Both the position numbers and the translations under genes were made by a program. A model generated the notes under the pieces. The model was not told the DNA's origin. It made no database searches and saw only the letters and a program-made list of their open reading frames with translations. Shown here piece after piece: positions 8,818-34,403 of a DNA stretch of 64,000 nucleotides; positions within the stretch are counted from its first letter, which is position 1; every line of letters starts with the position of its first letter. The stretch spans positions 917,298-981,297 of the forward strand of contig CP065013.1 of NCBI GenBank assembly GCA_016700315.1, given 5' to 3'. Source of the DNA: Candidatus Saccharimonadota bacterium. GTDB lineage: Bacteria > Patescibacteriota > Saccharimonadia > Saccharimonadales > SZUA-47.

Positions 8818-8892
8818 TGGCAGGGGCAGTAGGAGTCGAACCTACCTCTAAGGTTTTGGAGACCTTTATACTAGCCGATGTACTATGCCCCT
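8818..8892 (-). tRNA. trnW: tRNA-Trp (anticodon CCA), CCA-encoded
   Basis: The reverse complement folds as a cloverleaf. Acceptor AGGGGCA/TGCCCCT, D arm GTAC/GTAT, anticodon stem AAGGT/ACCTT with loop CTCCAAA, T arm GTAGG-TTCGACT-CCTAC, discriminator G, then CCA. Confidence 0.9.
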
Positions 8893-11632: not shown

Positions 11633-11903
11633 TTAGTAGTTAGTAGTAAGCGTAAAATTCTAAATTCTAAGCACTAAATTCTAAAATAGACCCTAGACCC
11701 TGGGCCCTGGTCCCTAGTCGGTACGGGGGTAATACTTGCTAACTACTAACTACTAACTACCAGTCCCTAGACCCTGGACCCTGGTCCCTAGTCCCTAGTC
11801 GGTACGGGGTTAATACTTGCTAACTACTACCAACTACCAACTACTAACTACTAGCCCATAGCTCTAATCACTCTAACCTCTAACCTCTAACCTAATCAAA
11901 GCT
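11633..11903. repeat. mosaic heptamer-repeat intergenic element, copy A (forward orientation)
   Basis: Consecutive blocks of 7-bp tandem units (TTAGTAG, ATTCTAA, ACCCTAG, CTAACTA, CTCTAAC). Also the conserved core AAGCGTAAAATTCTAAATTCTAAGCACTAAATTCTAAAATAGACCC. An internal ~68-bp direct duplication is present. Confidence 0.85.
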
Positions 11904-13576: not shown

Positions 13577-13981
13577 GTGGTAGAAAAGAAGAAAAAAGCT
13601 ATCAGAAAAACAGAGTCCATTCGAGAGCGCGCGGCAAAAAGTAGCCGACTGAGAGCTGGCCGAATCCGACGACTTAAGGGCGGTGCTGGACGGCTTAGGA
13701 TCCCTGTCAAACGTCTTTGGCAAGCCGGACACAAACCTTACCACGCTATTCCGCAAAAAGACAAAGGTTTTTGGGGTTTTATGACCAAAACTCGCCGTTT
13801 CACACCGATGTATCTCATCAACAGTTGGCGCGAGCTTAAACAGGTAACTTGGCCAGATCGTCGCACAACCTGGAAACTAGTACTGGCTGTATTTATCTTT
13901 GCTGTTTTCTTTGGGCTGGTCATTGCTTTAGTCGACTTTGGCCTTGATAAAATCTTTAAACAATTATTACTTCGTAAATAA
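13577..13981 (+). CDS. secE: preprotein translocase subunit SecE with basic N-terminal extension
   Basis: C-terminal SecE signature WRELKQVTWPDRRTTWKLVLAVFIFAVFFGLVIALVD. GTG start 6 nt after AGGAG. Lies directly upstream of nusG. Confidence 0.8.
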   Translation: MVEKKKKAIRKTESIRERAAKSSRLRAGRIRRLKGGAGRLRIPVKRLWQAGHKPYHAIPQKDKGFWGFMTKTRRFTPMYLINSWRELKQVTWPDRRTTWKLVLAVFIFAVFFGLVIALVDFGLDKIFKQLLLRK

Positions 13982-13994
13982 GAAAAGGTTATAT

Positions 13995-14537
13995 ATGACA
14001 AAACGATATGATACTAGCAAACAGTGGTACGCAATTCACACCTACAGCGGCTATGAAGAGAAAGTGGCTGAGTCAATACGCCAGCGCGCCGACTCACTAG
14101 ATATGAAAGATAAGATTTTTGCCGTTCTAGTGCCAAAAGAGAAGATGATCGAGATCAAGAACGGTAAGCGCAAAGTTGTCGAAAAGCGTATTTTCCAGGG
14201 CTATGTACTTGTTCAGATGAAAATGAGCGAAGATGCTTGGTATATTGTCAGAAACACACCAAGTGTTACCGGCTTTGTCGGCACAGGCACCGAGCCTAGC
14301 CCAGTAGAGCAAGATGAAATGGACAAAATTATGAAGCGCATGGGCAAAGAAGAGCCAAAACACAGGATGGATTATTCTGTTAGCGAAGTTGTAAGCATAA
14401 CTGATGGTCCATTCAAGGGCTTCGAAGGATCGATTGCCGAGGTTGACGAAGCTAAAGGCAAGCTTAAGGTACTGGTAAATATGTTTGGCCGCGAAACCCC
14501 AGTCGAGCTCGACGGCCTGCAAGTTAAGAAGGTCTAA
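13995..14537 (+). CDS. nusG: transcription termination/antitermination factor NusG
   Basis: WYAIHTYSGYEEKV (NGN domain) and a KOW motif (ITDGPFKGFEGSIAEVD). Start moved to the internal ATG at 13995 that follows the secE stop. Confidence 0.9.
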   Translation: MTKRYDTSKQWYAIHTYSGYEEKVAESIRQRADSLDMKDKIFAVLVPKEKMIEIKNGKRKVVEKRIFQGYVLVQMKMSEDAWYIVRNTPSVTGFVGTGTEPSPVEQDEMDKIMKRMGKEEPKHRMDYSVSEVVSITDGPFKGFEGSIAEVDEAKGKLKVLVNMFGRETPVELDGLQVKKV

Positions 14538-14576
14538 GATGTTTTCCGAAAAACATCTGAAAACATCATTGAAAGG

Positions 14577-14804
14577 ATGCCTTGGCAACTTGAAGAAGAT
14601 CTTGCAAGAGCTTTTTTTGCCAAAAATCCAGATAAAGTGGCGAGGATTGGACTTAGTGCAATTTCACTAGAATACACTACGAAACATGACGACAGAGCCG
14701 AAGAATACGCGGCAGTTTGGGATAGAGCTGCGGCAATGCTTAAAATGCGCGCCTTACAACCCGAACCTTTTCTTGACGACTACAGAATTCCACCACATCT
14801 ATAG
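14577..14804 (+). CDS. hypothetical 75-aa ORF between nusG and rplK (weak call)
   Basis: Open frame only. The SD-like GAAAGG abuts the ATG with poor spacing. No family recognised. Confidence 0.3.
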   Translation: MPWQLEEDLARAFFAKNPDKVARIGLSAISLEYTTKHDDRAEEYAAVWDRAAAMLKMRALQPEPFLDDYRIPPHL

Positions 14805-14899
14805 ACAACAGGGATAAAAAGTAGTAATATTATACGAAGTTACGCACATAAACTACTTGGGAGCTTCTAGCCCAAGAATCACGAAAGGTTATTAAGCTT

Positions 14900-14945
14900 A
14901 TCGTAATACCGAGAATCGGTAATCGATAATCAAAAATCGTAAATT
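14900..14945. repeat. period-7 array in the rplK 5' leader
   Basis: ATCGTAA TACCGAG AATCGGT AATCGAT AATCAAA AATCGTA AATT, ending immediately before the rplK ATG. Confidence 0.75.
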
Positions 14946-15374
14946 ATGGCAAAAGTAGTAAAAGCAAACCTCAAGATGAAACTAAAAGGCGGCCAGGCAT
15001 CGGCTGCGCCTCCAGTTGGTAGCACACTTGGTCAGTACGGCGTGAACATGATGGACTTTATCCAGCCTTTCAACGACCAAACCAAAGACATGATGGGTCA
15101 GGACGTAACAGTTCACATCCAGATTTTCGAAGACCGCACCATGGCTTGGCGCGTCGTCAGCACTCCAACTGATGTTCGTATCCTTAAAGAGCTTGGAGTT
15201 CAAAAAGGTTCGGGTGTACCCAACAAGGAAAAGGTTAGCAAGAAGCTCACTCAGGCGCAACTAACCAAAATTGCCGAAGAAAAAGCGATAGACATGAATA
15301 CCGACGACGTAGAGGCTGTCAAAAAAATGGTGGCTGGCACTGCCCGCAGCATGGGTGTAGAAGTCGAAAGCTAA
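14946..15374 (+). CDS. rplK: 50S ribosomal protein L11
   Basis: 142 aa. KLKGGQASAAPPVGSTLGQYGVNMMDF is the canonical L11 N-terminal motif. Confidence 0.95.
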   Translation: MAKVVKANLKMKLKGGQASAAPPVGSTLGQYGVNMMDFIQPFNDQTKDMMGQDVTVHIQIFEDRTMAWRVVSTPTDVRILKELGVQKGSGVPNKEKVSKKLTQAQLTKIAEEKAIDMNTDDVEAVKKMVAGTARSMGVEVES

Positions 15375-15376
15375 CC

Positions 15377-15661
15377 ATGTCTTCTAGAAGCTGGGGTCAA
15401 AGAGTTGAGCAGGGGCTTACACGCGCTAATGATTCCGAAAGAGATACTTTTATAAGAGTCTTCGGGCCACCGGATACCCGTATATCACTTCCTAGCGCTG
15501 CATTTTTTGGTAACTACCCCACAAGAGCGGACAATAGTAATCAAAATTCGCAATACACTCCCGAACAACTTAGTAGAGAGCTGAATATAGTTAACAGACT
15601 AAGACAAACGACTCCGCCAATTCTAGAACCCCCAGCTAAATCTGATTTTTCCAAAATCTAG
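15377..15661 (+). CDS. hypothetical 94-aa ORF inserted between rplK and rplA
   Basis: ATG 2 nt after the rplK stop with only a weak SD (GAAAG). No family recognised. Confidence 0.4.
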   Translation: MSSRSWGQRVEQGLTRANDSERDTFIRVFGPPDTRISLPSAAFFGNYPTRADNSNQNSQYTPEQLSRELNIVNRLRQTTPPILEPPAKSDFSKI

Positions 15662-15683
15662 TAGAGCCTTTTAGTGGAAATGA

Positions 15684-16013
15684 ATGCCCCACTGGCTTAC
15701 AATAAGCTTAATGAGTGTTGTCGAAAACTATAATGGCCAAGATGCTGGTGAGCCAGAAACTATACCAGGCATAGACGGCAAATATCTATTTACCGAGCAA
15801 CTCCGCACACTCGCTCATGCCGCAGTAGCGGCGTTCAATGAAGATAGACGAACAATGCCTAACAAATTTCTTGAATCAAACCTTCGTAGATTAGCAAATC
15901 AAACCCCTCCGAGCCATCAAGCACGATACTTTATGGATAAACTTGGACTTCCATATCTTATGGGTAAAGTCAGATACGATGACCACCACGCTAGCCGCAT
16001 GAATATCAGTTAG
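15684..16013 (+). CDS. hypothetical 109-aa ORF inserted between rplK and rplA
   Basis: Open frame with a weak SD. No family recognised. Confidence 0.4.
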   Translation: MPHWLTISLMSVVENYNGQDAGEPETIPGIDGKYLFTEQLRTLAHAAVAAFNEDRRTMPNKFLESNLRRLANQTPPSHQARYFMDKLGLPYLMGKVRYDDHHASRMNIS

Positions 16014-16034
16014 TTTGAGTTAGCGTGCGTAAAA

Positions 16035-16043
16035 TGATATAAT
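16035..16043 (+). promoter_or_regulatory. extended -10 promoter candidate (TGATATAAT) for rplA
   Basis: TG-N-TATAAT at 16035-16043, about 180 nt upstream of the rplA start. A structured leader follows it. Confidence 0.4.
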
Positions 16044-16223
16044 CTCATTATAAACAATTAATTTGTGGGAGTCTGAATCATAGTAAGGCGCCACTACCAC
16101 GAAAGGAGAGCTTCGCGGGCTCCGAAAAAGGGAAAAGAGCAGCCCGAGCAAAAAATCATATTTTTTGCTCGGCGCGTTGAGGAAAACCGATAGGTTGTCC
16201 TCAAAAGCGAAGCGAAAAAACTT

Positions 16224-17201
16224 ATGGCCGAAACAAAAGCCGATCTAATCAAACAAGCAAAAGCGCTTGGCATTGAACACGTCAACGCCAACAACACCAT
16301 GGCAGAGCTACGCGAAGAAATCGCCAAAGCAGCCCCCAAAAAACACGACAAAGAAGCATTGCCTGTGAGCGATCACAAGGCAGAGTTTGCCAAAGCTGGC
16401 AAAAGAAGCGCCAAGGCTGTAGCCGAAAAAGAAGAAGCTCTGTCAAAGACAAATGAAGATGAGTCAACCGTTTCGCCCTCTAAAACTACGATCAAACCTA
16501 CCCGCACGCGTCTAGAACGAGCTGGTAAGAAAATGAAAGAGGCTGCCAAACTTATCGACAGGTCTAAAGAATACACCCTCAAAGAAGCACTTGAACTCGC
16601 CACCAAAACTAGTACCACCAAATTCGACTCAACGCTCGAGCTGCATATACGCTTAAACGTCGACCCACGCCAAGCCGACCAGAACCTTCGAGACAATCTT
16701 ATGTTACCCGAAGGAACTGGCAAGACTGTAAGGGTGGCTGTGTTTGCCGAACCTGACGATGCCAAAGCCGCCAAAGAAGCCGGCGCCGACATTGCAGGCG
16801 ACGAGGAGCTACTGGCTCAGCTCGAAAAAGGCATAATTAACTTTGATATTTTAATCGCTACCCCTAAAGTCATGGCAAAACTTGGTAAATATGCCCGCGT
16901 TTTGGGGCCAAAAGGACTCATGCCAAACCCAAAGAGCGGCACGGTTACACCTACTCCCGCCAAAGCAGTCGCAGAGGCAAAGGCTGGTCGAGTAGAGTAC
17001 CGAGTCGACTCAACTGGCATTATCCATGTAGGAGCTGGAAAAATTAGTTTTGGGGCTGTCCGGCTCGAGAAAAACGCTGCCGCAATTTTAGCAAGCATCA
17101 AGTCTAACAAGCCATCAAGTATCAAAGGTATTTACGTTAAGAGCATATACCTGACAACCACCATGGGCCCAAGCATCAAGGTTCTAAACTCCGAGCTATA
17201 G
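16224..17201 (+). CDS. rplA: 50S ribosomal protein L1 with ~95-aa N-terminal extension
   Basis: The C-terminal ~230 aa is canonical L1 (LPEGTGKTVRVAVFA, VLGPKGLMPNPKSGTVT, GRVEYRVDSTGIIH). The N-terminus adds an HeH/Rho_N-like motif KADLIKQAKALGIEHVNANNTMAELREEI and a Lys/Glu-rich linker. Confidence 0.9.
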   Translation: MAETKADLIKQAKALGIEHVNANNTMAELREEIAKAAPKKHDKEALPVSDHKAEFAKAGKRSAKAVAEKEEALSKTNEDESTVSPSKTTIKPTRTRLERAGKKMKEAAKLIDRSKEYTLKEALELATKTSTTKFDSTLELHIRLNVDPRQADQNLRDNLMLPEGTGKTVRVAVFAEPDDAKAAKEAGADIAGDEELLAQLEKGIINFDILIATPKVMAKLGKYARVLGPKGLMPNPKSGTVTPTPAKAVAEAKAGRVEYRVDSTGIIHVGAGKISFGAVRLEKNAAAILASIKSNKPSSIKGIYVKSIYLTTTMGPSIKVLNSEL

Positions 17202-17202
17202 A

Positions 17203-17597
17203 AAAATACCGAACACTGAATACCGTATACATAGTACCTCGTACTCCGTACTGCGTACTGTTCAAATAGAGCCAAGAGCCATGATTAGGTTAGAGGTTAT
17301 AGGTTAGAGGTTAGAGTGATTAGAGCTATGGGCTAGTAGTAGTTAGTAGGTAGTAGTAGTTAGTAGGTTGTAGCTAGTAGCAAGTAGATATTACCCTACC
17401 GCGTACCCCGTACCGCGTACAGTTCAAGTAGAGCCAAGAACTAGGGTCTAGGGTCTAGGGTCTAGGGTCCAGGGTCTATTTTAGAATTTAGTGCTTAGGA
17501 TTTAGAATTTTACGCTTACTACCAACTACCAACTACTTACTACTACTCAAAGGTTCATACTTTATACATGATACTTAATACTTGATACTATCTAGTG
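17203..17597. repeat. mosaic heptamer-repeat intergenic element, copy B (reverse orientation)
   Basis: Reverse complement of the A/D module order: (AGGTTAG)n, AGTGATTAGAGCTATGGGCTAG, TAGTAGT blocks, GTACCGC blocks, CAAGAGC block, (CTAGGGT)n, then TATTTTAGAATTTAGTGCTTAGGATTTAGAATTTTACGCTT. An extra partial copy sits at the left end. Confidence 0.85.
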
Positions 17598-17600
17598 CTT

Positions 17601-17733
17601 AGACTTCAGGAATCACGCGTTTGCACCTTTTTGGCGAAAATCTCCGTTCCGCGCTCACTGTACGTTAAGTACGGCTCGGCTTTCGGTACTTGATTTTCAT
17701 CCGAAAATGCACTAAACGCGTAATTCCTGGAGT
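17601..17733. other. ~130-bp extended imperfect hairpin (ncRNA, bidirectional terminator or MITE-like element)
   Basis: CTTCAGGAATCACGCGTTTGCA pairs with TGCACTAAACGCGTAATTCCTGGAG, about 21 of 23 positions. Nested inner pairings are GGCGAAAATC/GATTTTCATCC and GTAC-GTTAA-GTAC. Confidence 0.5.
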
Positions 17734-17808
17734 TTAAGGTTTAAACGTTAACTATCTATAGATAATAAACTAACTAACGGTATCTCCTGAAATTAAGCTT
17801 ATTACCTT

Positions 17809-18080
17809 TTATCCGCCGACAATTGCACCCTCAGCAATGGTTAGGCTGGTAAGGTTCGGGTTACCATATATACTCCAAGTTTTTGCACCCTCAGCAATGG
17901 TTAGGTTGGTAAGGTTCGGGTTATCATATATACTCCAAGCTTTTGCACCCTCAGCAATGGTTAGGTTGGTAAGGTTCGGGTTATCATATATACTCCCAGC
18001 TTCTGCACCCTCAGCAATGGTTAGGTTGGTAAGGTTCGGGTTACCATATATACTCCAAGTTTTTGCACCCTCAGCAATGG
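17809..18080 (-). pseudogene. out-of-frame continuation of the LRR-repeat gene (4.5 further intact repeat units ending ...AEGAIVGG-stop)
   Basis: Translating the reverse strand in the shifted frame gives uninterrupted NPNLTNLTIAEGAKTWSIYG-type units down to the TAA at 17809-17811. The span 17809-19883 is 2075 nt, one nt short of a multiple of 3. Confidence 0.65.
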
Positions 18081-18470
18081 TTAGGTTGGTAAGGTTCGGG
18101 TTATCATATATGTCCCAGCTTCTGCACCCGCAGCAATGGTTAGGTTGGTAAGGTTCGGGTTATCATATATGTCCCCAGCTTCTGCACCCTCAGCAATGGT
18201 TAGGTTGGTAAGGTTCGGATTTTCACATATGCCCAGAGTTCTTGCACCCTCAGCAGTGGTTAGGCTGGTAAGGTTCGGGTTACCATATATACTCCAAGTT
18301 TTTGCACCCTCAGCAATGGTTAGGTTGGTAAGGTTCGGGTTATCATATATACTCCCAGCTTCTGCACCCTCAGCAATGGTTAGGCTGGTAAGGTTCGGGT
18401 TACCATATATACTCCAAGTTTTTGCACCCTCAGCAATGGTTAGGCTGGTAAGGTTCGGATATAGAAAAAT
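17815..18470. repeat. about 11 tandem 60-bp repeats encoding 20-aa LRR-like units
   Basis: The unit GCACCCTCAGCAATGGTTAGG(C/T)TGGTAAGGTTCGGGTTA(C/T)CATATATACTCC(A/C)AG(T/C)TT(T/C)T recurs with exact 60-nt phase, except for one 59-nt unit near 18112. Confidence 0.95.
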
Positions 18471-19883
18471 ATCATTTACCTCTGCTGCCGCTTCAACTGC
18501 TAGTTCTAGGTTTACGACAAAGCCTTTATCGTTATAGGTATAGTGGTAAGTATGGGTTGGACTACCTTTATCACCGTAAAGCACTAGCTCATGTCGGCCA
18601 TCAGCAAGGACTTTAATATTAGATCTGGTATCGTGATCAATCCCTGCTAGTTTACCCTGACCGTCTTTACTGACGTAGAGTGTTGGCGAGAGCATGTCGT
18701 AGTGACCTTTGTCTATTTTTGTTACTAGGCCGTTTTTGATGTGCTCATAATGACCTAGGTATACGTTGTCCTGTTCGTAGTAGTAATAGTGGATACCGCC
18801 GTCATTGTCTAATGTATAGTTGTCACCCAGTTTCGTATTTCCAAGCTTCATCAAATCATCACGCCCAACATGATGATAAAGTGCATGTCTTAGTCCGTGA
18901 GCAACAGCGTCAAGATCGTTGCTGTAAGTATTATCTGGGTTAGTGACTGTATGATTGTAGCGGTTTTTAATAGATACATGGTTGCCACTGCGGCTGATCT
19001 GTACCGACATACTGGATACTCCGTATGGGTCTTCACGGGTTGGTGCAAGCCTGATTAGATCATACCTATCAGTTTCAGGGTCGTACCTGTTTATGATACG
19101 AAGGTACTGCTTCCAGGCCTCGCTTAAGTTATCGGCAGTCAGCTCATTAGCCGGCAGAGTATCATCGGCATCGTTGTGACGCAGCCACATAATATGGTAC
19201 TGCTTTAGTCTCTCTGGTATTTCTTTAAAGGTGCAAAGCCTCTCGCCGCCTCTGTAATCACGCTCAAAGGCCGCTACTTCATCTACCAAGTTAAGCGGAC
19301 CATGAAGTTTGTAGCCTACCGACGCGGCTAGCTCGTATGGGTTCTTAGGCTCCGTCAGCCGAATCTCTCCCTGCTCATAGTAGTGTCTCTCTAAAATTGC
19401 GGCTATATAACTGTGGTTAGCTCGCAGTGTCTGTAGGGCCTGGTGGGGGTTGGGTATAATCTTCTTCAGCTGAAAAGCAAAGTCCAATTGTTCCATGTAG
19501 GGAGCTAATAACTCACGGGCACCGTTACCGGCATAGCTTCCGTCGCTATTAAGCTCGCCTTTAATAAACGAGTCGCCATACCAGTTATTTAGCCGGTTAG
19601 TGTTAGACCTTAATATCTTTTTTCTGGCTGCCTCTTCGGTGTCTAAAGTGACTGGTGTTTCTGTGTCTGATTGATGGCTTTCTGATCTGTCGGTTAGAGC
19701 AGTAGCGCCAAGCTCTCTAGAACTTAAGCACGGCGTACTCTCAGCTGTGCTTTCAAGATAAAACTGCGTACGTTTATCGCCAGCTGTACCTGGAACCATA
19801 ACGCCACTAATATCTCCAACACCTAACTCGGTTGTCGATAAGAACCCATAAATAGGTTGTTTAGTAAGTAAATCTCCGTGCAT
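18081..19883 (-). CDS. large cytoplasmic-type protein: unknown ~460-aa N-terminal domain plus C-terminal LRR-like 20-aa repeats (NPNLT(S/N)LTIAEGA...); frame ends prematurely inside the repeats
   Basis: 600-aa ORF. The repeats resemble BspA-type leucine-rich repeats. No signal peptide seen. The stop at 18081 follows a 1-nt deletion relative to neighbouring units. Confidence 0.75.
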   Translation of the reverse strand: MHGDLLTKQPIYGFLSTTELGVGDISGVMVPGTAGDKRTQFYLESTAESTPCLSSRELGATALTDRSESHQSDTETPVTLDTEEAARKKILRSNTNRLNNWYGDSFIKGELNSDGSYAGNGARELLAPYMEQLDFAFQLKKIIPNPHQALQTLRANHSYIAAILERHYYEQGEIRLTEPKNPYELAASVGYKLHGPLNLVDEVAAFERDYRGGERLCTFKEIPERLKQYHIMWLRHNDADDTLPANELTADNLSEAWKQYLRIINRYDPETDRYDLIRLAPTREDPYGVSSMSVQISRSGNHVSIKNRYNHTVTNPDNTYSNDLDAVAHGLRHALYHHVGRDDLMKLGNTKLGDNYTLDNDGGIHYYYYEQDNVYLGHYEHIKNGLVTKIDKGHYDMLSPTLYVSKDGQGKLAGIDHDTRSNIKVLADGRHELVLYGDKGSPTHTYHYTYNDKGFVVNLELAVEAAAEVNDIFLYPNLTSLTIAEGAKTWSIYGNPNLTSLTIAEGAEAGSIYDNPNLTNLTIAEGAKTWSIYGNPNLTSLTTAEGARTLGICENPNLTNLTIAEGAEAGDIYDNPNLTNLTIAAGAEAGTYMITRTLPT

Positions 19884-20182
19884 GTTGTTTTATTGTATCA
19901 TATTTTAACTATTATTCAATAGTCCGCGAGTGGCGGTCTGTGTTAGACAACTATCCTTTTCTTTTCTTAATGTCTTCCTAAATTAACATAATTTTTATAG
20001 TTTAACCCCAGCTCGACATTAGTCAGCCCAAGTAAATATTAATTTGTATCTGTAAATCTTATCGCTACGACGTATTTTACGTGTTAACCGCTACGTAAAA
20101 CACTCCGAAACTAAGTTTTTACTAGCTAAAATGTATATTTATAGGTGTTGTTATGTCGAGCTAGGGTCAGTATAGTGGAATT

Positions 20183-20671
20183 ATGGCACACATACACGAG
20201 TTAAAGGACTTCACTGTCAGCGCTTTTGTCTTGCACCCTGAAAAACCACAGTTTTTGCTACTACATCACAACAAAATTGGGAGGTGGCTACAGCCGGGCG
20301 GGCACATTGAGCTAAAAGAAAACCCTATCCAAGCTCTGAATCACGAATTATATGAAGAAACTGGCCTTAAGCCAGACCAGTGGGGTTTCGTCGGCCAACC
20401 AGACTACCCAAAAGTAGATCACGACTTAACTACCGAAGCGACCTTACCACTGCCTTTTTATCTGAGTGAACATAACTTTAGTCCTACCCACCAGCACATA
20501 GACCTAACGTACCTAGTCAAGGCAAAAACGGCTACTCTAACCAAAAATCCTGATGGTGCCAGCGCCATAGGCTGGTTCACACTCGAACAAGTAGCGGCAA
20601 AGTTAGACGATGGTAAATTGTTTAAGGCGACGTATCAAATTTGCGAGTGGATCGCCAAAAAATACTTTTAA
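20183..20671 (+). CDS. NUDIX hydrolase
   Basis: Nudix box GGHIELKENPIQALNHELYEETGL. 162 aa. Confidence 0.85.
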   Translation: MAHIHELKDFTVSAFVLHPEKPQFLLLHHNKIGRWLQPGGHIELKENPIQALNHELYEETGLKPDQWGFVGQPDYPKVDHDLTTEATLPLPFYLSEHNFSPTHQHIDLTYLVKAKTATLTKNPDGASAIGWFTLEQVAAKLDDGKLFKATYQICEWIAKKYF

Positions 20672-20754
20672 GCAATAGCGTAATAATAACAACTTTTACA
20701 AAAACACAACAAACCGCTATTCACACCAGCTCTCAATATAAGTAAACTATAGGT

Positions 20755-21528
20755 ATGTCGAGTGAGGGTAACAGTTCGTCTAGTAATGACAGCACGCAGT
20801 CTAATTTGCCACAGGCCGGTGTTTATAGCAATATTGACATCCGAAAGGCTATAGCTGATGGCCACATAATTTGCCAGCCCTATAACCCTAAACATGTAGC
20901 CCACGCAAGCCTCGACGTCACCTTAGGCTATTATTACTACCGAACCGGTCAAGAGAAGCGCGGCTTTGTCTATAATCCTTTTGACGAATCTGACGTACGC
21001 CGCTACTTCGGCGAACTACAACAAGCCGTTAGCCACCAAGATTGGTGCAACGCCAACGGCGTAAAGCCGTTAGCTAACATTCCGCTTGATCATCCCGTAA
21101 TACCACTTCGCCCTGGCGAGAGAATTCTGGCCCACACCCATGAATTTTTTGGCATCAAACCGCCTGGTGCTTACCAAGTAAAAGCTCGTTCAAGTTGGGG
21201 ACGTAACGGTGTTTCGGTTTGTTTTGATGCTGGCTGGGTCGACCCGGGTTACATCAATCGTCTTACTCTGGAGATTTATAACCTGAACGAACACGAAACT
21301 GTTCTACTACCAGTAGGTGAGAGAATAGCCCAGGCCGTTTTCTTGACAACCGGTGAAGTTGAAGGCAGTTATGGCGAAGGCCGCGACCAAGGATTCAGCG
21401 GCAAGTACCAGCAGGGAAGTGACCTCGAGGAGATCATTGCCAGCTGGACGCCAGAGCAAATGTTGCCTAGAGCCTACAAAGATCAAAGAACATTACCGGG
21501 AGTGATCGCCGGTTTAAAAGCACGATAG
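20755..21528 (+). CDS. dcd: dCTP deaminase / dUTPase-superfamily protein (Dcd-like, long form)
   Basis: IDIRKAIADGHIICQPYNPKHVAHASLDVTLG and a trimeric-dUTPase-fold C-terminus (GWVDPGYINRLTLEIYN, PVGERIAQAVF). Has a Ser-rich N-terminal tail. Confidence 0.75.
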   Translation: MSSEGNSSSSNDSTQSNLPQAGVYSNIDIRKAIADGHIICQPYNPKHVAHASLDVTLGYYYYRTGQEKRGFVYNPFDESDVRRYFGELQQAVSHQDWCNANGVKPLANIPLDHPVIPLRPGERILAHTHEFFGIKPPGAYQVKARSSWGRNGVSVCFDAGWVDPGYINRLTLEIYNLNEHETVLLPVGERIAQAVFLTTGEVEGSYGEGRDQGFSGKYQQGSDLEEIIASWTPEQMLPRAYKDQRTLPGVIAGLKAR

Positions 21529-21554
21529 TAAATGAAGAGAATGGAAGACGCAAA

Positions 21555-23918
21555 ATGAACATTAGCGAAAAAAACGGTCTGTTTTTTGTAATTGAGGGCA
21601 CCGACGGAACAGGTAAAGGAACTCAATTTGAGCTACTGACCAAACGCTTAGTTGAGGCTGGTCACAAAGTAGCAGTCTTCGATTTCCCTAGATACAGCGA
21701 GCCCAGCAGCTACTACGTCAGAGAGTATTTGAATGGCAACTATGGCACAAGCGAAGAAGTTGGGCCGTTCACAGCTTCGCTTTTTTATGCACTAGATCGT
21801 TTCGCCGCACGCGATCAGATCAAAGAAGCTCTAGCAGATGGTTATATAGTACTGTCAAATCGCTTTGTTGCCAGTAACATGGGCCATCAGGGAACTAAAT
21901 TTGACACCAGTGAAGAACGAAAAGGCTATTTTTTGTGGCTCGATAATCTGGAGTTTGGCATGCTCGGGATTCCTCGTCCTACAAAGAATTTTGTCCTGCG
22001 TGCTACGGCAGAAATTGCCCAGAAGCTTGTCGATCAAAAAGCTAAGCGAGACTACACCGACAAAAAACGCGATCTTCATGAAGCAGACTTAGAACACCTC
22101 AAAAAAGCAGTGATGGTTTATGATGAACTCTGCACTTTGATGCCGAAGGATTTCGCTCGAGTGGACTGCGTTAGAAGCGGCGAGATGATGAGTAAAGCGG
22201 CTATTCACGATATGCTGTGGAAACTGATTGAGCAGGACCTGCCTAAGGCCAAAAAGGGCCAAGGTAAGCTTATTAAGCACGAGAGTCCAAGGGGTGAAAC
22301 TTCGCCGCCGCCTCTTGATCTAACCAACGAACCACTCGTTCAGAAACAACCAAACGGGTCTTATGAGATAACGGAATCTGGCAAGCGCTTTTTGCAATCA
22401 GCCGTCACCAACGTCAGCGGTAATGTTTACGCATTTACAGATGAAATGAGCCCTATAACTATCGCTGCCGCCATGGCTAGGCTTAGCCGCCGCGGTGATG
22501 ATATGCGAGTAACACTACTTGATGAATTTGCCAGCAGCAAAGCCAACAAAGACGAGAAGCTACTGCAACGTGTGATCACGGCCTATGGCGATGATTCCGT
22601 CCAACAGTTAGTCGGCCAACACATTGTAGTCGAGAATGCTAGTAATTTGCTAACAAAGAAGCTCGAATGGGGAAGATTAGCAGCTTACTTGGAGCAATCA
22701 ACCCGCTACATTTATTACGATCAGAAGGATAGCCAGGGGAACTATAAATACTTTGTGCCAACTCACTTCAATGAAGCCGTCAAAACTCAGTATTGTAAAG
22801 TTATGGATGCTATCTTTGATGTCTACTCTAAGCTGGTGCATGATCTGACAACTTACGTCCGAAGTAATTCAAAAACTCCTCAGGATGAGCGAGACGTGGC
22901 CTGGCAGGGAGCAACTCGGGCTCAAGCTTGCGATGCTGCACGACACATGTTGCCAGTTGCCACCAAATCTACCGTCGGAATTTTTGCTAGCGGCCAGGCA
23001 CTCGAGAATATGATTATGAATCTTCTAGCCGATGAGCTGCCAGAAGCACGAGAAGTTGGACAGCAGATATTACAAGAATCACGAAAAGTAGTCAGTACTT
23101 TCTTAGAGAGAGCCGATAAGCCTGATCGTGGCGGCGCAACAATCGCCTACCGCAATATTACTAAAAAAGCGGTTGCCAATATAGCCAACCAGAATCTTCC
23201 ACAAAATCTTGCGCCTGCGGCTAAGAACCCAGTGGTCTTGACAGATGTATGGCCAAGAAACGAATTAGATTTGGTTGCTGAAATAGTCTACGAACACAGT
23301 AATTTACCGCTTCTGACCATCAGAAATGAGGTGACAAGCTGGCCCGTAGACAAAAAAATCGAAACTCTTAAAGCATACATCGGCGAACGACTAAATAGAC
23401 GACACAAGCCTGGGCGGGCATTCGAAAAAGCTCACTATAGCTGGGATCTGATCTGTGATTATGGGATTTTCCGCGACCTTCAGCGTCATCGAATGGTAGA
23501 CGATATGGAATGGCAGCAGCTGACGCCTCGCTACGGATACGAGATCCCTGAACTTGTCGAAGAAGCGGGCCTGACAGAATTATTTGAGCAAGCCTTCGCT
23601 TTAAGTTTGGCGCTGCACAGCTATCTTACAGAGAAGGGCTATAGTTTAGAATCACAATACGCCACTTTACTGGGCCACAAGATGCGCTGGAAGATGACTT
23701 ACAATGCACGCGAAGCCTACCACTTCAATGAACTTCGCACCAGCCCTCAAGGTCATCCTGGTTACCGAAAACTAGTGCTACAAATGCACGAAAAACTCTC
23801 CGAGGTACATCCAATCATTGCCGGGGGAATGAAGTTCGTCAATGTGGCAGAGGATCCCGAACTTACAAGACTCGCAGCGGAGCGAGCAACGCAATTTAAG
23901 CTAGATCAGTTAGTCTAG
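21555..23918 (+). CDS. tmk-thyX: fusion protein: thymidylate kinase (N-terminal ~215 aa) + long-form FAD-dependent thymidylate synthase ThyX (C-terminal ~530 aa)
   Basis: The N-terminus FFVIEGTDGTGKGTQFELL is the Tmk P-loop. The C-terminus carries a ThyX-type RHR motif (GIFRDLQRHRMVDDMEWQQL) and a Thy1-like upstream half (ITIAAAMARLSRRGDD). Confidence 0.75.
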   Translation: MNISEKNGLFFVIEGTDGTGKGTQFELLTKRLVEAGHKVAVFDFPRYSEPSSYYVREYLNGNYGTSEEVGPFTASLFYALDRFAARDQIKEALADGYIVLSNRFVASNMGHQGTKFDTSEERKGYFLWLDNLEFGMLGIPRPTKNFVLRATAEIAQKLVDQKAKRDYTDKKRDLHEADLEHLKKAVMVYDELCTLMPKDFARVDCVRSGEMMSKAAIHDMLWKLIEQDLPKAKKGQGKLIKHESPRGETSPPPLDLTNEPLVQKQPNGSYEITESGKRFLQSAVTNVSGNVYAFTDEMSPITIAAAMARLSRRGDDMRVTLLDEFASSKANKDEKLLQRVITAYGDDSVQQLVGQHIVVENASNLLTKKLEWGRLAAYLEQSTRYIYYDQKDSQGNYKYFVPTHFNEAVKTQYCKVMDAIFDVYSKLVHDLTTYVRSNSKTPQDERDVAWQGATRAQACDAARHMLPVATKSTVGIFASGQALENMIMNLLADELPEAREVGQQILQESRKVVSTFLERADKPDRGGATIAYRNITKKAVANIANQNLPQNLAPAAKNPVVLTDVWPRNELDLVAEIVYEHSNLPLLTIRNEVTSWPVDKKIETLKAYIGERLNRRHKPGRAFEKAHYSWDLICDYGIFRDLQRHRMVDDMEWQQLTPRYGYEIPELVEEAGLTELFEQAFALSLALHSYLTEKGYSLESQYATLLGHKMRWKMTYNAREAYHFNELRTSPQGHPGYRKLVLQMHEKLSEVHPIIAGGMKFVNVAEDPELTRLAAERATQFKLDQLV

Positions 23919-24315
23919 ATATCCTTAGAATCACAGGAGGATTCGGCACGGCCGACACTCGCGAAAGTAAGTCTTTTCTCTGTTGCTCACTCACTTGTTC
24001 GCAGTTTATAGACAGCGCAACGGCACCGAATGGTGGTTCCATGTCTGCTAATACACTGTTAAAATCTTCTATCGTAGTGACGCCGAAGACACCAAGAAAA
24101 CCTATGGTGAATAATGACGATTCATCGACTAAAAACCTCGCTCTCCTCTCCTTTTCGTCATAAGAACTAACGCCCGAAAAAAGAACATCTACAAAATCCT
24201 GTGTCAGTAAATGTTGTAAGGTAAACGAAGCTACGCGCTCACCTACAACAGCGCTATCCGTCACCTTTGACTCGCAATTTGGATCCGAGAACCTTTGTCT
24301 AGAAATATCCGACAT
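23896..24315 (-). CDS. hypothetical 139-aa protein
   Basis: ORF served by a near-consensus promoter (TTGACA-16 nt-TATAGT) ending 8 nt from its ATG. Its 3' end overlaps tmk-thyX convergently by 23 nt. No family recognised. Confidence 0.5.
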   Translation of the reverse strand: MSDISRQRFSDPNCESKVTDSAVVGERVASFTLQHLLTQDFVDVLFSGVSSYDEKERRARFLVDESSLFTIGFLGVFGVTTIEDFNSVLADMEPPFGAVALSINCEQVSEQQRKDLLSRVSAVPNPPVILRISRLTDLA

Positions 24316-24322
24316 CGACAGT

Positions 24323-24350
24323 ACTATACTCTAGTTTCTATTTTTGTCAA
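24323..24350 (-). promoter_or_regulatory. sigma70-type promoter for the 23896-24315 gene (possibly a leaderless mRNA)
   Basis: Reverse strand reads TTGACA (24345-24350), a 16-nt spacer, then TATAGT (24323-28). The -10 lies only 8 nt upstream of the ATG. Confidence 0.5.
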
Positions 24351-24352
24351 TA

Positions 24353-24381
24353 TTGACAGCCTTTGATGTCATGTTTATTCT
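24353..24381 (+). promoter_or_regulatory. sigma70-type promoter candidate driving a ~140-nt leader toward the 24638/24835 ORFs
   Basis: TTGACA (24353-58), a 17-nt spacer, then TATTCT (24376-81). The -35 is the other half of the palindrome TGTCAATATTGACA (24345-24358). Confidence 0.4.
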
Positions 24382-24503
24382 GGTTTGTATATGTTAAATA
24401 CAGCAGATTTCAGCAAGGTAAGTCTCGTGATTCTCGACGTGGCTTGTGTTGGAATTGGGTCGAAGCATAGATAAAACAACCTGCACAAGCCAAAAAACAG
24501 AAG

Positions 24504-24528
24504 CTTCGATCCAAAATCGAAGTTTTTT
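24504..24528 (+). terminator. intrinsic terminator/attenuator in the leader
   Basis: CTTCGAT (24504-10), loop CCAAA, ATCGAAG (24516-22), then TTTTTT (24523-28). Confidence 0.55.
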
Positions 24529-24637
24529 AATATTTAGGAGTTTTACAAAGTGGAATCAAAATACCCGTCACCAGCTCATTACGAACACAGAATACCGCTA
24601 AGCTACATCTTAGAGTTAGGCGCTAGCGCTACCGAAA

Positions 24638-24838
24638 ATGCGACTTATGTTTACTACGAGGATTACAGCGACTAGTATGGAATACGAAATATACGGCTTT
24701 AACCCAGAAAAAATGAGAAGACCGCAGTCCGCGCTAGAAGACGCCGAGTGGAGAATAAAAAATGGCGCAGTCGTACCAACACACTTAGTTGCTATGCTGC
24801 CAGATCTAAAATTAGTAAGAAACGAAACCGAAAAATGA
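24638..24838 (+). CDS. hypothetical small protein (66 aa; true start may be the internal ATG at 24677)
   Basis: Open frame. Its stop overlaps the next ATG as ATGA. No family recognised. Confidence 0.4.
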   Translation: MRLMFTTRITATSMEYEIYGFNPEKMRRPQSALEDAEWRIKNGAVVPTHLVAMLPDLKLVRNETEK

Positions 24839-25353
24839 AGACTAGGGGTCCAGCAATAGCGTGGGGAAGCACCCAAACTAATTATGAAATGTCCATTATA
24901 CCGTTAGCCGACAGATCTGTTAGGTTTATGTTTGTCCATTCTACAGGCTGGACTCACGCAGGGTTCACAGTTAATACTGACGTGTCGTCTAGCCCAGAGT
25001 GCGACGTACTGTCTATCCAGCTCGCTGTAGATACGAGCAAAAGAACACCATACGAAAGCGCGCAATCTATAGCGGAACAACTAAATGAAGTGAGGGCGTT
25101 GATGCTCATTGAAAAAATGCGGCATGCGCTATACGACTACCCAAACATACCCGAAAACATTCATATCCCTCTAATAGGTAATATGGGTAAGTTGGCCTTA
25201 GCCCATGCCTTAGATACTATCAACCTAACAAGCCCTCGTATTTTTGGTAAGTTTTACCCGGTCGCTACGTCGTATGCCACAAAAACAGTTCAAAGCCAAA
25301 AAGGCGCCGACGTCCATCGAAAAATCAGAGATTTATTGATGACTAGAGCATAG
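24835..25353 (+). CDS. hypothetical 172-aa protein
   Basis: Start chosen at the ATG forming an ATGA overlap with the upstream ORF; the ORF-track start is 24748. No family recognised. Confidence 0.5.
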   Translation: MKTRGPAIAWGSTQTNYEMSIIPLADRSVRFMFVHSTGWTHAGFTVNTDVSSSPECDVLSIQLAVDTSKRTPYESAQSIAEQLNEVRALMLIEKMRHALYDYPNIPENIHIPLIGNMGKLALAHALDTINLTSPRIFGKFYPVATSYATKTVQSQKGADVHRKIRDLLMTRA

Positions 25354-25588
25354 ATTTTTGTATTGTAGTTGTCGGTTAAATCTGCTATAATTCATCTGTT
25401 ACCGAAGACAGCGACGGAAGAAATTCTTGAAAAGGTCGCCGAGGCAATAAATCTTTATTGTTTTTGAGCATTAGATTGCGTCTTCGATTAAGAGGACGTT
25501 TTTTGATTCTCGGTAACAAAAGGCGAGCAACAATACAAAGGTCGAGCTGCTCAACAAAAAATAAACTAACTGAAAAGGAGAATTAGTT

Positions 25589-25665
25589 AGAGACAAGAGA
25601 TAAGAGACAAGAGATAAGAATACATTACTTCTCTTGCTCGTGACTCGCGACTCATAACTCTATTT
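25589..25665. repeat. period-7 arrays in the rplJ leader
   Basis: GAGACAA GAGATAA GAGACAA GAGATAA, followed by CTCTTGC TCGTGAC TCGCGAC TCATAAC TCTATTT. The two blocks are partly complementary. Confidence 0.75.
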
Positions 25666-25667
25666 TC

Positions 25668-26192
25668 ATGGCACTAACCAAAGTAAAAAAGAACGAAGTT
25701 GTGCAAGAAGTCTCAGACCTTCTGGCAACTTCAAAGATGACAGTGGTCAGCCAGTACCAAGGAGCCACTGTTAAATCACTACAGTCCCTCAGAAAGCATG
25801 CAAAGCAAGCTGGCACAACTGTAAAAGTTGTTAAAAACCGACTTGTAGTACAAGCCCTGAAGGCAAATGACGGCCTAAAGGACGTTTCGACAAGCGAGCT
25901 AAAAGGCATGCTGCTTTATGCCTTCAACCCGCAAGACGAAGTAGCTGCTGCTCAAGTTTTGGATAAATTTGCCAAAGACGAGCCAAGCCTCAAATTTGTC
26001 GGAGCAATTAGCGCAGACGGCAAGTTTTTGGACGCTAATGAGGTGACAACACTGGCTAAAATGCCTAGCAAAAATCAGCTTATCGCTGAAACAGTTGCTA
26101 TGCTACTAGCGCCAGTCAACGATGTTACCAACGCACTTTCTGGCAACTTGCACGGATTGCTCGACGCAGTAGCCGCCAAAGCATCGGCCTAA
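25668..26192 (+). CDS. rplJ: 50S ribosomal protein L10
   Basis: 174 aa. Typical L10 N-terminus (KKNEVVQEVSDLLATSKMTVVSQYQGATVKSLQSLRK). Lies directly upstream of rplL. Confidence 0.9.
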   Translation: MALTKVKKNEVVQEVSDLLATSKMTVVSQYQGATVKSLQSLRKHAKQAGTTVKVVKNRLVVQALKANDGLKDVSTSELKGMLLYAFNPQDEVAAAQVLDKFAKDEPSLKFVGAISADGKFLDANEVTTLAKMPSKNQLIAETVAMLLAPVNDVTNALSGNLHGLLDAVAAKASA

Positions 26193-26204
26193 AGGCCAAA
26201 AAGA

Positions 26205-26260
26205 ACGATTAACGATTAAGGATTTACTTCTTTAATCATTCATCACAAATCATTAATCGA
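26205..26260. repeat. period-7 array (CGATTAA / TCATTAA type) between rplJ and rplL
   Basis: ACGATTA ACGATTA AGGATTT ... TAATCAT TCATCAC AAATCAT TAATCG. The left and right halves are partly complementary. Confidence 0.7.
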
Positions 26261-26272
26261 AAGGGAATTCAA

Positions 26273-26653
26273 ATGTCAGATGTAAAGAAACTAGCAGAGG
26301 AACTAACCAAGCTTAGCGTTCTCGAAGTAAACGAACTAAAAAATATCCTAAAAGATGAGTACGGCATCGAGCCTGCAGCTGCTGCTGTTGCTGTTGCTGG
26401 CCCTGCCGCAGGCGGCGATGCTGCTCCAGCTGCCGAGGAAAAAGCAGAGTACGATGTAGTCCTTAAGGACGCAGGCGCACAGAAAGTTGCTGTTATCAAG
26501 GCCGTTAAAGACGTAACTGGTCTTGGTCTTGGTGAAGCCAAAGCAATTGTTGATGGCGCTCCAAAAACCGTCTTAGAAAAAGCTAAGAAAGAAGACGCTG
26601 AAGCTGCCAAGAAAGCCCTCGAAGAGGCAGGCGCTACAGTAGAGCTAGCTTAA
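26273..26653 (+). CDS. rplL: 50S ribosomal protein L7/L12
   Basis: 126 aa. An Ala-rich hinge and the C-terminal domain [40 protein letters not shown]. Confidence 0.95.
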
Positions 26654-26673: not shown

Positions 26674-26702
26674 AGCGGGGTAACACCCGCTTTATTTTTT
26701 TA
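26674..26702 (+). terminator. rho-independent terminator after rplL
   Basis: AGCGGG (26674-79), a 6-nt loop, CCCGCT (26686-91), then TTTATTTTTTTT. Confidence 0.8.
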
Positions 26703-26725: not shown

Positions 26726-27346
26726 ATGAGTAGGTACGTTCCGCCCGATAGTTATACATATGACGGATGTGGCTTGATGTCTACATACGCCCAAAGCAGC
26801 TTGCATGCTGCATACCAGCAAGCCGAGTTGACGGTCTCAACATTGCGACTTATGCCAGCAGACGTCAGTAAATCCTGTATGTCAATTGTAGATTCTAGAC
26901 TGCCTTGTCAAAGCGAAGCGTTGCAAGCCGAATTTGACATGATTGTTGCTTACTCGGGCACTTTAGTAGTTGCTCAAATGCTACTTACTATAGGCGTAGA
27001 TGCAGAGTTCAAGAAGTCTGTGGCAAGAGATTTCATAAATGATAATCCTTACTCAGTTAAAGCAGACCCAGCTCAAAAAATCTCTACTATTTTTGATGTG
27101 ATGGCCTTGGGCATAAAAAGGCGTCCGGAAACCGTTCCGTTACTAGATTCTCTGGCAGCCAAACGTTTTCAGGAGTTCTACCCAGCCTTAACAATCAGCG
27201 ACGAACTCTGCACCCTAGCAATCAACACGGGTATTGGGGTCACCGCTTTTCGATTGACAGAGTCTTGGGAAAAAGAACGACTGTGGGCAATCTACGCCAA
27301 CGAACAAGCTATAGCTGAACAAAATTGGGAAGAACTTCTCAAGTAG
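26726..27346 (+). CDS. hypothetical 206-aa protein
   Basis: Open frame in the position where rpoB normally follows rplL. No family recognised. Confidence 0.5.
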   Translation: MSRYVPPDSYTYDGCGLMSTYAQSSLHAAYQQAELTVSTLRLMPADVSKSCMSIVDSRLPCQSEALQAEFDMIVAYSGTLVVAQMLLTIGVDAEFKKSVARDFINDNPYSVKADPAQKISTIFDVMALGIKRRPETVPLLDSLAAKRFQEFYPALTISDELCTLAINTGIGVTAFRLTESWEKERLWAIYANEQAIAEQNWEELLK

Positions 27347-27380
27347 TAGGCTTAATGTGGTAAAATGAATTTGCATAATA

Positions 27381-27475
27381 ATATCTAGAGTGCGGGAAGG
27401 GAACTGACCCTCTGATCCGCCGACAACCGAGACGATAAGTCAAACGGTGTCAAATTCAGCCGAAAGGAAAGATAT
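27381..27475 (+). promoter_or_regulatory. SAM-I (S-box) riboswitch aptamer upstream of metK
   Basis: P1 is ATATCT...AGATAT. Core reads AGAGTGCGGGAAGGGAACTGACCCTCTGATCCGCCGACAACC...ACGGTGTCAAATTCAGCC, matching the SAM-I consensus blocks AGAG-GG-GA-GGGA-CUG-CCC-UGA-CC-GCAACC...GGUGC-AA-UCC with a few substitutions. Confidence 0.75.
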
Positions 27476-27495
27476 GCATAAGATTATCGACAACT

Positions 27496-27533
27496 AAAGC
27501 TTGGCCTGTATAGCCGGGCTTTTTATATTTTTT
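27496..27533 (+). terminator. riboswitch expression-platform terminator
   Basis: AAAGCTTGGC (27496-505) pairs with GCCGGGCTTT (27513-22), including two G-U pairs. TTTTATATTTTTT follows. Confidence 0.6.
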
Positions 27534-27598
27534 GTGAAACTAGGCTTAATTTTCAATTATCAATTTACAATTTTTCAAAACAAGGAGAATAAAATTAC

Positions 27599-28570: not shown

Positions 28571-28571
28571 G

Positions 28572-34345: not shown

Positions 34346-34403
34346 CGCTACAAGCTAATCGCTAGCCCACCTCGCTGCTCATTCGTCATTCTGACGAATT
34401 GGG

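Follow-up and report, generated by a model that had tools for sequence, protein, structure and literature searches.

A probably inherited, modular secE-nusG-rplKAJL cluster in Saccharibacteria

The genes secE, nusG, rplK, rplA, rplJ and rplL, with rpoB and rpoC behind them, form a contiguous cluster in Escherichia coli and Bacillus subtilis. In a 64,000-nucleotide (nt) stretch of the genome of a Candidatus Saccharimonadota bacterium (GCA_016700315.1, contig CP065013.1, positions 917,298-981,297 of the forward strand; the whole stretch is called the window), the cluster is spaced out, with 408 nt between nusG and rplK, 849 nt between rplK and rplA, and 8466 nt between rplA and rplJ. The last two spacers depart from the canonical contiguity, in which they are short. 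The question raised by this locus is whether the cluster was broken recently in one genome or whether its spacing is inherited. An earlier note on this DNA put the gaps at 400 nt, 850 nt and 8.4 kb and took them for three insertions special to the window genome. Its list of genes and gaps was borne out by Pfam and by distance measurement, and the departure from the E. coli and B. subtilis arrangement holds. The comparison with related genomes indicates that the 'fragmented' cluster is very probably the inherited gene order of Saccharibacteria (TM7), comprised of four separate expression modules with local control.

Gene order in the clade and in the window

The relatives were collected by an L1 protein search, taking one genome per species, which yielded 80 loci, all from metagenome-assembled genomes of Saccharibacteria, with L1 identities of 54-75%. 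Their gene order was mapped by tblastn using the window proteins. Essentially all 80 loci share the order GT2 (on the minus strand), secE, nusG, rplK, rplA, Nudix, dcd, tmk~thyX and, further on, rplJ and rplL, where Nudix is present in a subset only. The succession of secE and nusG is kept in about 70 related loci. The tmk~thyX fusion lies downstream of rplA in 55 of the 56 relatives with enough sequence, and dcd stands beside it in 55 of the 56 species at that position. The distance from rplA to rplJ is at most 9-10 kb in 44 of 50 relatives and ranges from 2991 to 8717 nt across all 49 relatives measured. The separation of rplK from rplA, which had been regarded as rare, amounts to at least 178 nt in 62 of 78 species. 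The three breaks and the dcd-tmk~thyX block are thus common to nearly all sampled species. Because the breaks are shared across the clade, they are old rather than recent in the window genome, and only the filling of the gaps differs between species.

None of the relatives inspected has rpoB directly after rplL. The place is taken by a gene of about 170 residues, often followed by open reading frames (ORFs) of about 500 and about 455 residues. The first corresponds to the window ORF at 29503-30012; the other two match the window dnaX and dnaB in size and order, with only the window copies identified by Pfam. In the window, rplL is followed not by rpoBC but by a terminator, ORFs without an identified family, metK, the 169-residue gene, EamA, dnaX and dnaB, and since the longest window ORF does not exceed 939 residues, rpoB and rpoC are not in the window. 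Compared with its relatives, in which the 169-residue gene, dnaX and dnaB come directly after rplL, the window adds the ORF o206, an S-adenosylmethionine (SAM) riboswitch with metK, and a minus-strand ORF (together 26726-29261). The riboswitch, at 27378-27478, passes the Rfam gathering score.

The cluster genes of the window are all on the plus strand. SecE is encoded at 13577-13981 (Pfam SecE, E=2.7e-15) and NusG by an ORF that opens at 13938, has its probable ATG at 13995 and ends at 14537 (Pfam NusG, E=1.5e-29). The rplK gene (L11) occupies 14946-15374 and matches Ribosomal_L11_N and Ribosomal_L11; rplA (L1, 325 residues) occupies 16224-17201 and matches Ribosomal_L1 over residues 127-316. 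Pfam likewise identifies Nudix (20183-20671), dcd (20755-21528), the tmk~thyX fusion (21555-23918), rplJ (25668-26192) and rplL (26273-26653). A terminator-like hairpin with a T-run at 26674-26691, found by a terminator scan, closes the unit near 26700, and o206, which has no identified family, follows at 26726-27346; these are the terminator and the hypothetical gene that had been noticed in the place of rpoB. About 100 residues at the N-terminus of L1 (window 16224-16600), rich in Lys, Ala and Glu, are alignable in most of the 80 species and have no match in Pfam, PHROGs or NCBIfam. In the tmk~thyX product, of 787 residues, thymidylate kinase is joined to a long ThyX that has two Thy1 stretches; the fusion is found clade-wide beside dcd. 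An exact look-up of the Nudix protein gave no match.

Predicted control regions of the modules

In the proposed arrangement, the first module would be secE-nusG, often with a trailing small ORF. The second would join rplK to a conserved leader and a sigma-70-type promoter of its own, and the third would be rplA behind a mimic of the L1 stalk of 23S rRNA that abuts the ribosome-binding site. The fourth would be rplJ-rplL behind an L10 leader with an attenuator hairpin, closed by the terminator. Free L1 would repress its own translation without the involvement of rplK, and where the gap upstream is large, rplA would have been given an extended -10 promoter of its own as well. The block of deoxynucleoside triphosphate metabolism (Nudix, dcd and the fused tmk~thyX) would have come to lie between rplA and rplJ before the sampled species diverged.

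The leader of rplA carries a conserved motif, present in all 81 leaders inspected. Its consensus, which makes up the last 40-55 nt ahead of rplA in every related locus inspected, is UUGUGGGA-(hairpin)-G-N5-ACCAC-GAAAGGA(G)-N-AUG. In the window it occupies 16065-16108 on the plus strand and consists of GUGG (16065-68), a bulge GA, the hairpin, a G with 5 nt, ACCAC (16096-16100) and the Shine-Dalgarno (SD)-like GAAAGGAG (16101-16108). The outer helix GUGG/CCAC is invariant across 72 aligned leaders. The inner hairpin covaries in the same 72 leaders: all 5 pairs have changes on both sides, the compensatory cells number 89, and none of 500 shuffles scores as high as the real alignment. When the site is slid along the alignment as a control, the paired fraction falls to 32-57%. 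In the related metagenome contigs L107 and L151, the taxonomy of which is inferred, the L1 stalk of the 23S rRNA reads GGUGGGAGAC...GUCG...AUACCACC; the leader, GUGGGAG(G/U)C..GCCG..ACCAC, resembles this stalk site (GGUGGGAGAC...GUCG...ACCACC) in the same sense.

Other phyla offer a precedent. An L1-interacting RNA has been reported ahead of rplA in Actinobacteria, Cyanobacteria and Chloroflexi and ahead of rplK in Proteobacteria, and an L1 site ahead of rplA is found also in Methanococcus vannielii (Fu et al. 2013, PMC3616713). RNAs of this class are defined in part by nM affinity for L1, which G-to-A mutations abolish. The saccharibacterial leader has the features described there: it lies directly 5' of rplA, forms a short stem with a supported helix and a GA-containing internal bulge that has a potential G-A pair and an unpaired A, bears a same-sense likeness to the 23S L1 stalk and adjoins the ribosome-binding site. 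Unlike those RNAs, the predicted site of the window is parted from the start codon by a structured insert of 123 nt (ACCAC to ATG); in 76 of 78 species, only 11-17 nt lie between the end of the motif and the ATG of rplA. The rplA leader motif is probably bound by L1, which would thereby repress its own translation. Saccharibacteria fit the group in which the site precedes rplA, and therefore the argument that L1 needs a bicistronic rplKA mRNA, which is specific to E. coli, does not apply to them. No earlier report of an L1 site of this kind in Saccharibacteria was found in the literature searched.

The L11 operon of E. coli (rplKA, within secE-nusG-rplKAJL-rpoBC) has the same genes in the same relative order. 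There, as presumed here, L1 binds an mRNA mimic of its 23S site and rplJL is under a separate, L10-controlled leader. Unlike in E. coli, the window operator lies ahead of rplA and not of rplK, rplK and rplA are neither adjacent nor translationally coupled, 8.5 kb including dcd and tmk~thyX separate rplA from rplJ, and rpoBC is unlinked. A second L1 site before rplK, suggested by GGGAG and CACGAAAGG common to the rplK and rplA leaders of the window, was considered and rejected, as in the family alignment GGGAG lies in the variable stem around a conserved GCTTC loop.

Promoter-like sites were found by sequence scans. The one ahead of rplA, TTGAGT-17-TGATATAAT at 16015-16043 (plus strand), has TTGAGT, a spacer of 17 nt and TATAAT with a TG extension, and agrees at 10 of 12 positions. 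In at least 15 other species, all of them with gaps of at least 288 nt, an extended -10 is again present 20-30 nt ahead of the L1 site. This recurrence at the same distance supports the promoter-like site that the earlier note had placed upstream of rplA.

The rplK unit consists of a conserved TAGACAACAGGGG..TATAAT box and a leader that opens with GTTACGCAC. In the window the promoter-like site (TAGACA, 17-18 nt, TAATAT/AATATT) is at 14802-14831 on the plus strand; at this place 40 of 75 species have the box GACAACAGRGG and 46 of 75 have a -35/-10-like pair. The leader, at 14839-14945 (plus strand), has no Rfam match. It is made up of GTTACGCAC (14839-14847), a stem (14856-61/14871-76) around the loop AGCTTCTAG (14862-14870), and an SD-like GAAAGG (14883-14888), which is followed by 57 extra nt before the ATG. 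The conserved opening is exact in 62 of 70 species and specific to this leader, where 62 of its 76 occurrences in 1.25 Mb are found, the remainder being at chance level. The loop GCTTC[AT], of the form (A)GCTTC(A/T)A, is present in 58 of 70 species, and the stems around it vary between species yet look complementary by eye. RNAalifold predicted no pairs in a gappy alignment of 34 rplK leaders, so that the hairpin is one read by eye. The 141-nt spacer with the leader has 0 substitutions relative to strains whose rplK differs at 19 mostly synonymous sites.

The conserved segments of this leader, in RNA form GUUACGCAC and the GCUUC loop, have counterparts in the ribosome. GTTACGCAC and GCTTCTAA are exact reverse complements of GTGCGTAAC (H44) and TTAGAAGC (the H43 loop) in the L11-binding centre of related 23S genes. 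The 23S genes have each counterpart once, with 25 nt between the two, and the pair runs colinear in antisense with the rplK leader (14839-14876), of which the hairpin loop reads GCTTCTA. Ranking of 23S segments by duplex energy with the leader was uninformative: the segment of the GTPase-associated centre came top in 7 of 70 cases and GC-rich segments dominated. The antisense claim therefore rests on the exact motif matches. Nothing on such a match to the L11-binding site was found in the literature searched. The rplK leader may base-pair with L11-free rRNA and so gauge it by mRNA-rRNA pairing rather than through a protein-bound mimic.

The rplJ control region spans 25383-25667 on the plus strand and was pieced together from Rfam, the terminator scan and sequence reading. 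It starts with an extended -10, TGCTATAAT, at 25383-25391. The L10 leader RF00557 follows upstream of rplJ at 25384-25514 (53.6 bits, gathering score 44) and includes, as that family does, a terminator-like hairpin (25478-25499). Unlike RF00557 alone, the window has about 150 nt of further leader. In this part an SD-like AAGGAG stands near 25576-25581, and some 80 extra nt part the ancestral SD position from the rplJ ATG; of 49 relatives, 39 have the rplJ SD at 6-17 nt from the start codon. Extra sequence of 57-123 nt at the corresponding place is found in rplK, rplA and rplJ of this lineage alike (14889-14945, 16109-16223 and 25582-25667), the SD being near the start codon in most relatives. 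The use of SD sequences in the window is low, 13 of 58 ORFs carrying one upstream. A -10-like hexamer lies 5-10 nt ahead of the start codon in 13 of 58 ORFs, which suggests leaderless mRNAs.

A two-hairpin RNA element between the L1 site and rplA

The insert ahead of rplA contains a 75-nt RNA element of two hairpins, here called R1, at 16129-16203 on the plus strand, between the L1 site with its SD-like sequence and the ATG. The window copy has a fold z of -4.2 and scores 87.8 bits with a covariance model built from 12 copies. The model matches 22 sites in the species loci, and 80 metagenome loci yield another 66 copies. In the model-fitted alignment pairing extends to 96% of the cells, with 233 compensatory ones, and none of 500 shuffles attains the observed score. 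Copies elsewhere include those in L022 (1445-1520 and 12772-12845), L039 (2748-2821, minus strand), L179 (1338-1409), L151 (1232-1307, minus strand) and L107 (2519-2591, minus strand). A sister strain has at the same place a copy that is divergent in sequence and preserves the structure. A weak match before rplJ (25596-25654, E = 0.73) was judged not credible. Rfam 15, searched with cmscan over 14500-16300, which covers the element and the rplK leader, gave at E <= 10 only two chance matches to long non-coding RNAs, and a gathering-level scan of 17 element-bearing loci returned rRNA and tRNA only. Two RNA regions of the cluster, R1 and the rplK leader, look new.

The copies of R1 tend to stand before RNA genes and translation genes. 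A tRNA gene follows closely behind about 19 of 65 metagenome copies, in most cases after 4-18 nt, and single copies lie 6 nt before a 23S gene (L179), 14 nt before a 5S gene (L151) and inside a 23S gene (L107). Many others are 14-40 nt ahead of ORF starts, the N-termini of which resemble ribosomal-protein and translation genes; assigned by eye, these are S17, L23, S18, S3, L18, L10, S14, SecY, NusG, SSB and RNase III.

Two kinds of known RNA invite comparison. Ribosome-binding sites may be split and closed by a hairpin, as in phage T4 gene 38. In the window, the flanks GCUUCGC (16110-16116) and GCGAAGC (16207-16213) can close around R1, and like a split site of the gene 38 type this helix could loop out the insert, leaving GGAG (16105-16108) about 11 nt ahead of the AUG; the sister strain has the closing pair CAGUA/UACUG at those positions. 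Unlike in gene 38, the looped-out part is a conserved 75-nt module that also precedes tRNAs and rRNAs, and the helix is not family-wide: as a general property of R1 it was rejected (mean z = -0.39) and is confined to a subgroup. The second comparison is with the intervening sequences of 23S rRNA that are cut by RNase III, which R1 recalls in having one copy inside a 23S gene and others just 5' of 23S and 5S. Unlike such sequences, R1 occurs also 4-18 nt before tRNAs and 14-40 nt before ribosomal-protein starts, and its helix P1 has only about 11-15 bp. The rRNA genes of Saccharibacteria are reported to carry short, intron-less insertions (PMC11270868).

The positions of R1 suggest that it may act in processing or in the definition of 5' ends, or may be structural. 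A tentative proposal is that at least one of the two devices represents a new regulatory class, either the rplK leader as antisense to H43/H44 or R1 as a general module that defines 5' ends or directs the processing of highly expressed RNAs.

Spacer contents and the rival explanations

The spacers are bimodal in length and, when long, are filled by ORFs. Between the rplK stop and the L1 site there are 2-42 nt in 16 of 78 species and at least 178 nt in the others. The distance from the nusG stop to the rplK promoter is at most 60 nt in 12 of 68 species and above 150 nt in 54 of 68. Between rplK and rplA the shorter spacers are typically covered to about 90% by a plus-strand ORF and the longest to a lesser extent, minus-strand ORFs being much shorter; in nusG-promoter spacers above 150 nt the median cover is 72% for plus-strand versus 34% for minus-strand ORFs. 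Because control would be local to each module, the spacers between modules would tolerate new DNA and serve as hot spots where small ORFs of the same strand arise, diverge and are swapped. The recent fillings in the window would be the small ORFs o75, o94 and o109, a repeat block, a frameshifted repeat-protein gene and the ORFs ahead of rplJ.

The three small ORFs, all on the plus strand, are present as the earlier note described them. The ORF o75 (14577-14804, 75 residues) fills the spacer between nusG and the rplK promoter like a cassette, its stop TAG coinciding with the opening 3 nt of the rplK -35 box. Strain L085 has in its stead an unrelated ORF of 91 residues, which runs from the nusG stop to the rplK -35 box between identical flanks. 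The ORF o94 (15377-15661) begins 2 nt after the rplK stop and is a species-level orphan, with a single 97%-identical cluster among 5.8 billion; its frame is open in all close strains, and L001 and L002 have an unrelated ORF of 61-68 residues at its site. The third, o109 (15684-16013), is a real gene. It belongs to a small conserved protein family that is found at the same site, between rplK and rplA, in 13 of 78 species and comprises 55 representative clusters in 1.84 billion proteins; members of only 24-26% identity (P0003, P0005) occupy the same slot. Compared with L085, which is 10% diverged, o109 has 16 synonymous and 14 non-synonymous changes and no indels. The core of its AlphaFold model (residues 30-90) has a predicted local distance difference test score of 81-94 and consists of a beta-hairpin and 3 helices, for which Foldseek against the PDB gave no match below E 0.8. 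The coding status of o94, by contrast, is uncertain. Divergence between strains is mosaic over 14946-17201 relative to L085 and L086: rplK is identical, o94 differs at one site, and o109-rplA is diverged by about 8-10%, and recombination breakpoints inside the cluster are therefore implied.

The gap between rplA and rplJ contains repeat copy B, Nudix, dcd and tmk-thyX, as had been stated. Block B (17234-17590), built of 7-nt tandem units, is an inverted copy of block A (11620-11900); the arms of this inverted repeat, I2, are 97 nt long and 89% complementary. Similar intergenic blocks of about 300 nt, which are runs of differing 7-nt units such as AGGTTAG, TAGTAGT, GTACCGC, CTAGGGT and others, are found at 33940-34365 and 55015-55290 as well as at the sites of A and B. 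Beyond block B lies a minus-strand gene (17809-19883, open part 18081-19883) with about 12 repeats of 20 residues, NPNLTxLTIAEGAxxxSIYx. It carries a -1 frameshift, as the earlier note saw: one 60-nt unit has 59 nt through a 1-nt deletion (GGGG to GGG near 18113), and the repeats resume in another frame up to the stop at 17809-17811. The label of leucine-rich repeat (LRR) gene is unverified, as the Pfam LRR profile has no match over 18081-19883 at E <= 0.01 and NPNLTxLTIAEGA is LRR-like by eye only. The gene is called at 482-560 residues in close strains. Two lineage-specific ORFs without an identified family, o139 (23896-24315, minus strand) and o201 (24748-25353, plus strand; called in close strains as 53 and 172 residues), have no family match and no tblastn match in the 80 species. 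Searches of Pfam, PHROGs and NCBIfam with o75, o94, o109, o139, o201, o206 and the repeat protein gave two sub-threshold matches only. A perfect 160-nt tandem duplication (8498-8892) adjoins tRNA-Trp, a minus-strand gene 4.7 kb from secE; the matching place in strain L081 is taken up by a serine recombinase and a phage-like replication protein, which suggests an integration site.

Three other explanations have to be weighed. A recent breakage by three insertions of mobile or repeat-associated DNA, the view of the earlier note, would explain why none of the 80 related species has a counterpart of o94, o139, o201, o206 or the repeat-protein gene and why the gap from rplA to dcd, 3553 nt, is above that of all 68 relatives (maximum 2782 nt). 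It agrees also with the inverted blocks A and B on either side of GT2-secE-nusG-rplK-rplA, with the exchange of o75 between near-identical strains and with a rearrangement at block B in L099. Nevertheless, the breaks at nusG|rplK, rplK|rplA and rplA|rplJ and the dcd-tmk~thyX block are found in nearly all sampled species, each module has a conserved control region, and what is recent is the gap filling only, which makes this account quite improbable. The notion that o75, o94 and o109 are non-coding and open by chance draws on the lack of homologues of o94 and o75 beyond the species (apart from a weak homologue of o75 in L002), on the mere 4 synonymous and 4 non-synonymous changes of o94, on the lack of a family or fold match for all three, and on a 1-nt indel within o75 in the Logan contig L089. 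For o109 it is refuted: distant species have members of its conserved family at the same locus, and the predicted fold is confident. Across species, moreover, a spacer is either lacking or occupied by an ORF of the same strand, to the extent given above, and the ORFs are open and indel-free at 7-10% DNA divergence; on the whole, chance is an unlikely cause of these frames.

The third explanation is that the join between rplA and Nudix is an assembly artefact at block B or at the 60-nt array and that the frameshift is a sequencing error. The 104-kb contig L099 (97.7% identical) has murX-tsaD in the place of rplA, joined to the window at about 17607, where block B ends; the tandem array is cut short by the end of the L081 contig and has Ns in the scaffold L100; and the frameshift comes down to one base of a G-run, in an array of near-identical 60-nt units. 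However, L081 and L100 both run from rplA across block B into the repeat array, and rplA followed by Nudix/dcd is the clade-wide order, so that a misassembly at block B, which the earlier note had named as a possible refutation, is contradicted by the junction as well as by synteny. Several independent public assemblies, 97-100% identical, reproduce the region: L081 (GCA_029781765.1), L082, L083 and L100 reproduce secE-rplA, block B and the start of the repeat array, the region of o139 and o201 (23896-25353) recurs in independent assemblies, and eight contigs (JGI, ENA, Logan) match 21.7-32.3 kb at 99.3-100% identity. An artefact is accordingly the least probable of the three, to the point of being hardly credible.

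Several points weigh against the reading of an inherited cluster of locally controlled modules. The order is established as ancestral for the sampled clade only, in which all relatives have at least 54% L1 identity, and L099, the junction of which is either a strain rearrangement or a chimera, departs from it at the end of block B. L1 binding, the promoter activities, the attenuator and the expression of the small ORFs are predictions from sequence. Most spacer ORFs are without detectable homologues (73 of 104 are singletons in phmmer), and the coding status of most of them rests mainly on strand bias and spacer fill. In the window, the distance of 123 nt between the L1 site and the ATG means that simple occlusion of the ribosome-binding site may not apply there, and rplK, rplA and rplJ of the window lineage have no SD adjoining the start codon.

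With inherited order and local control of each module as the preferred reading, an apparent anomaly proves ordinary for its clade, and a false alarm is removed. The spacers are two positions in a highly transcribed, essential cluster where Saccharibacteria would repeatedly gain, lose and exchange small proteins, and they are a useful place to search for fast-evolving factors of the episymbiotic lifestyle. The two RNA elements offer testable hypotheses on how ribosomal components may be expressed and balanced with few SD sequences. Taken as predicted, the cluster would show that fully modular control of ribosomal proteins is possible in a bacterium that is reduced and host-dependent: L1 would regulate nothing but itself, and L11 would be uncoupled from it.

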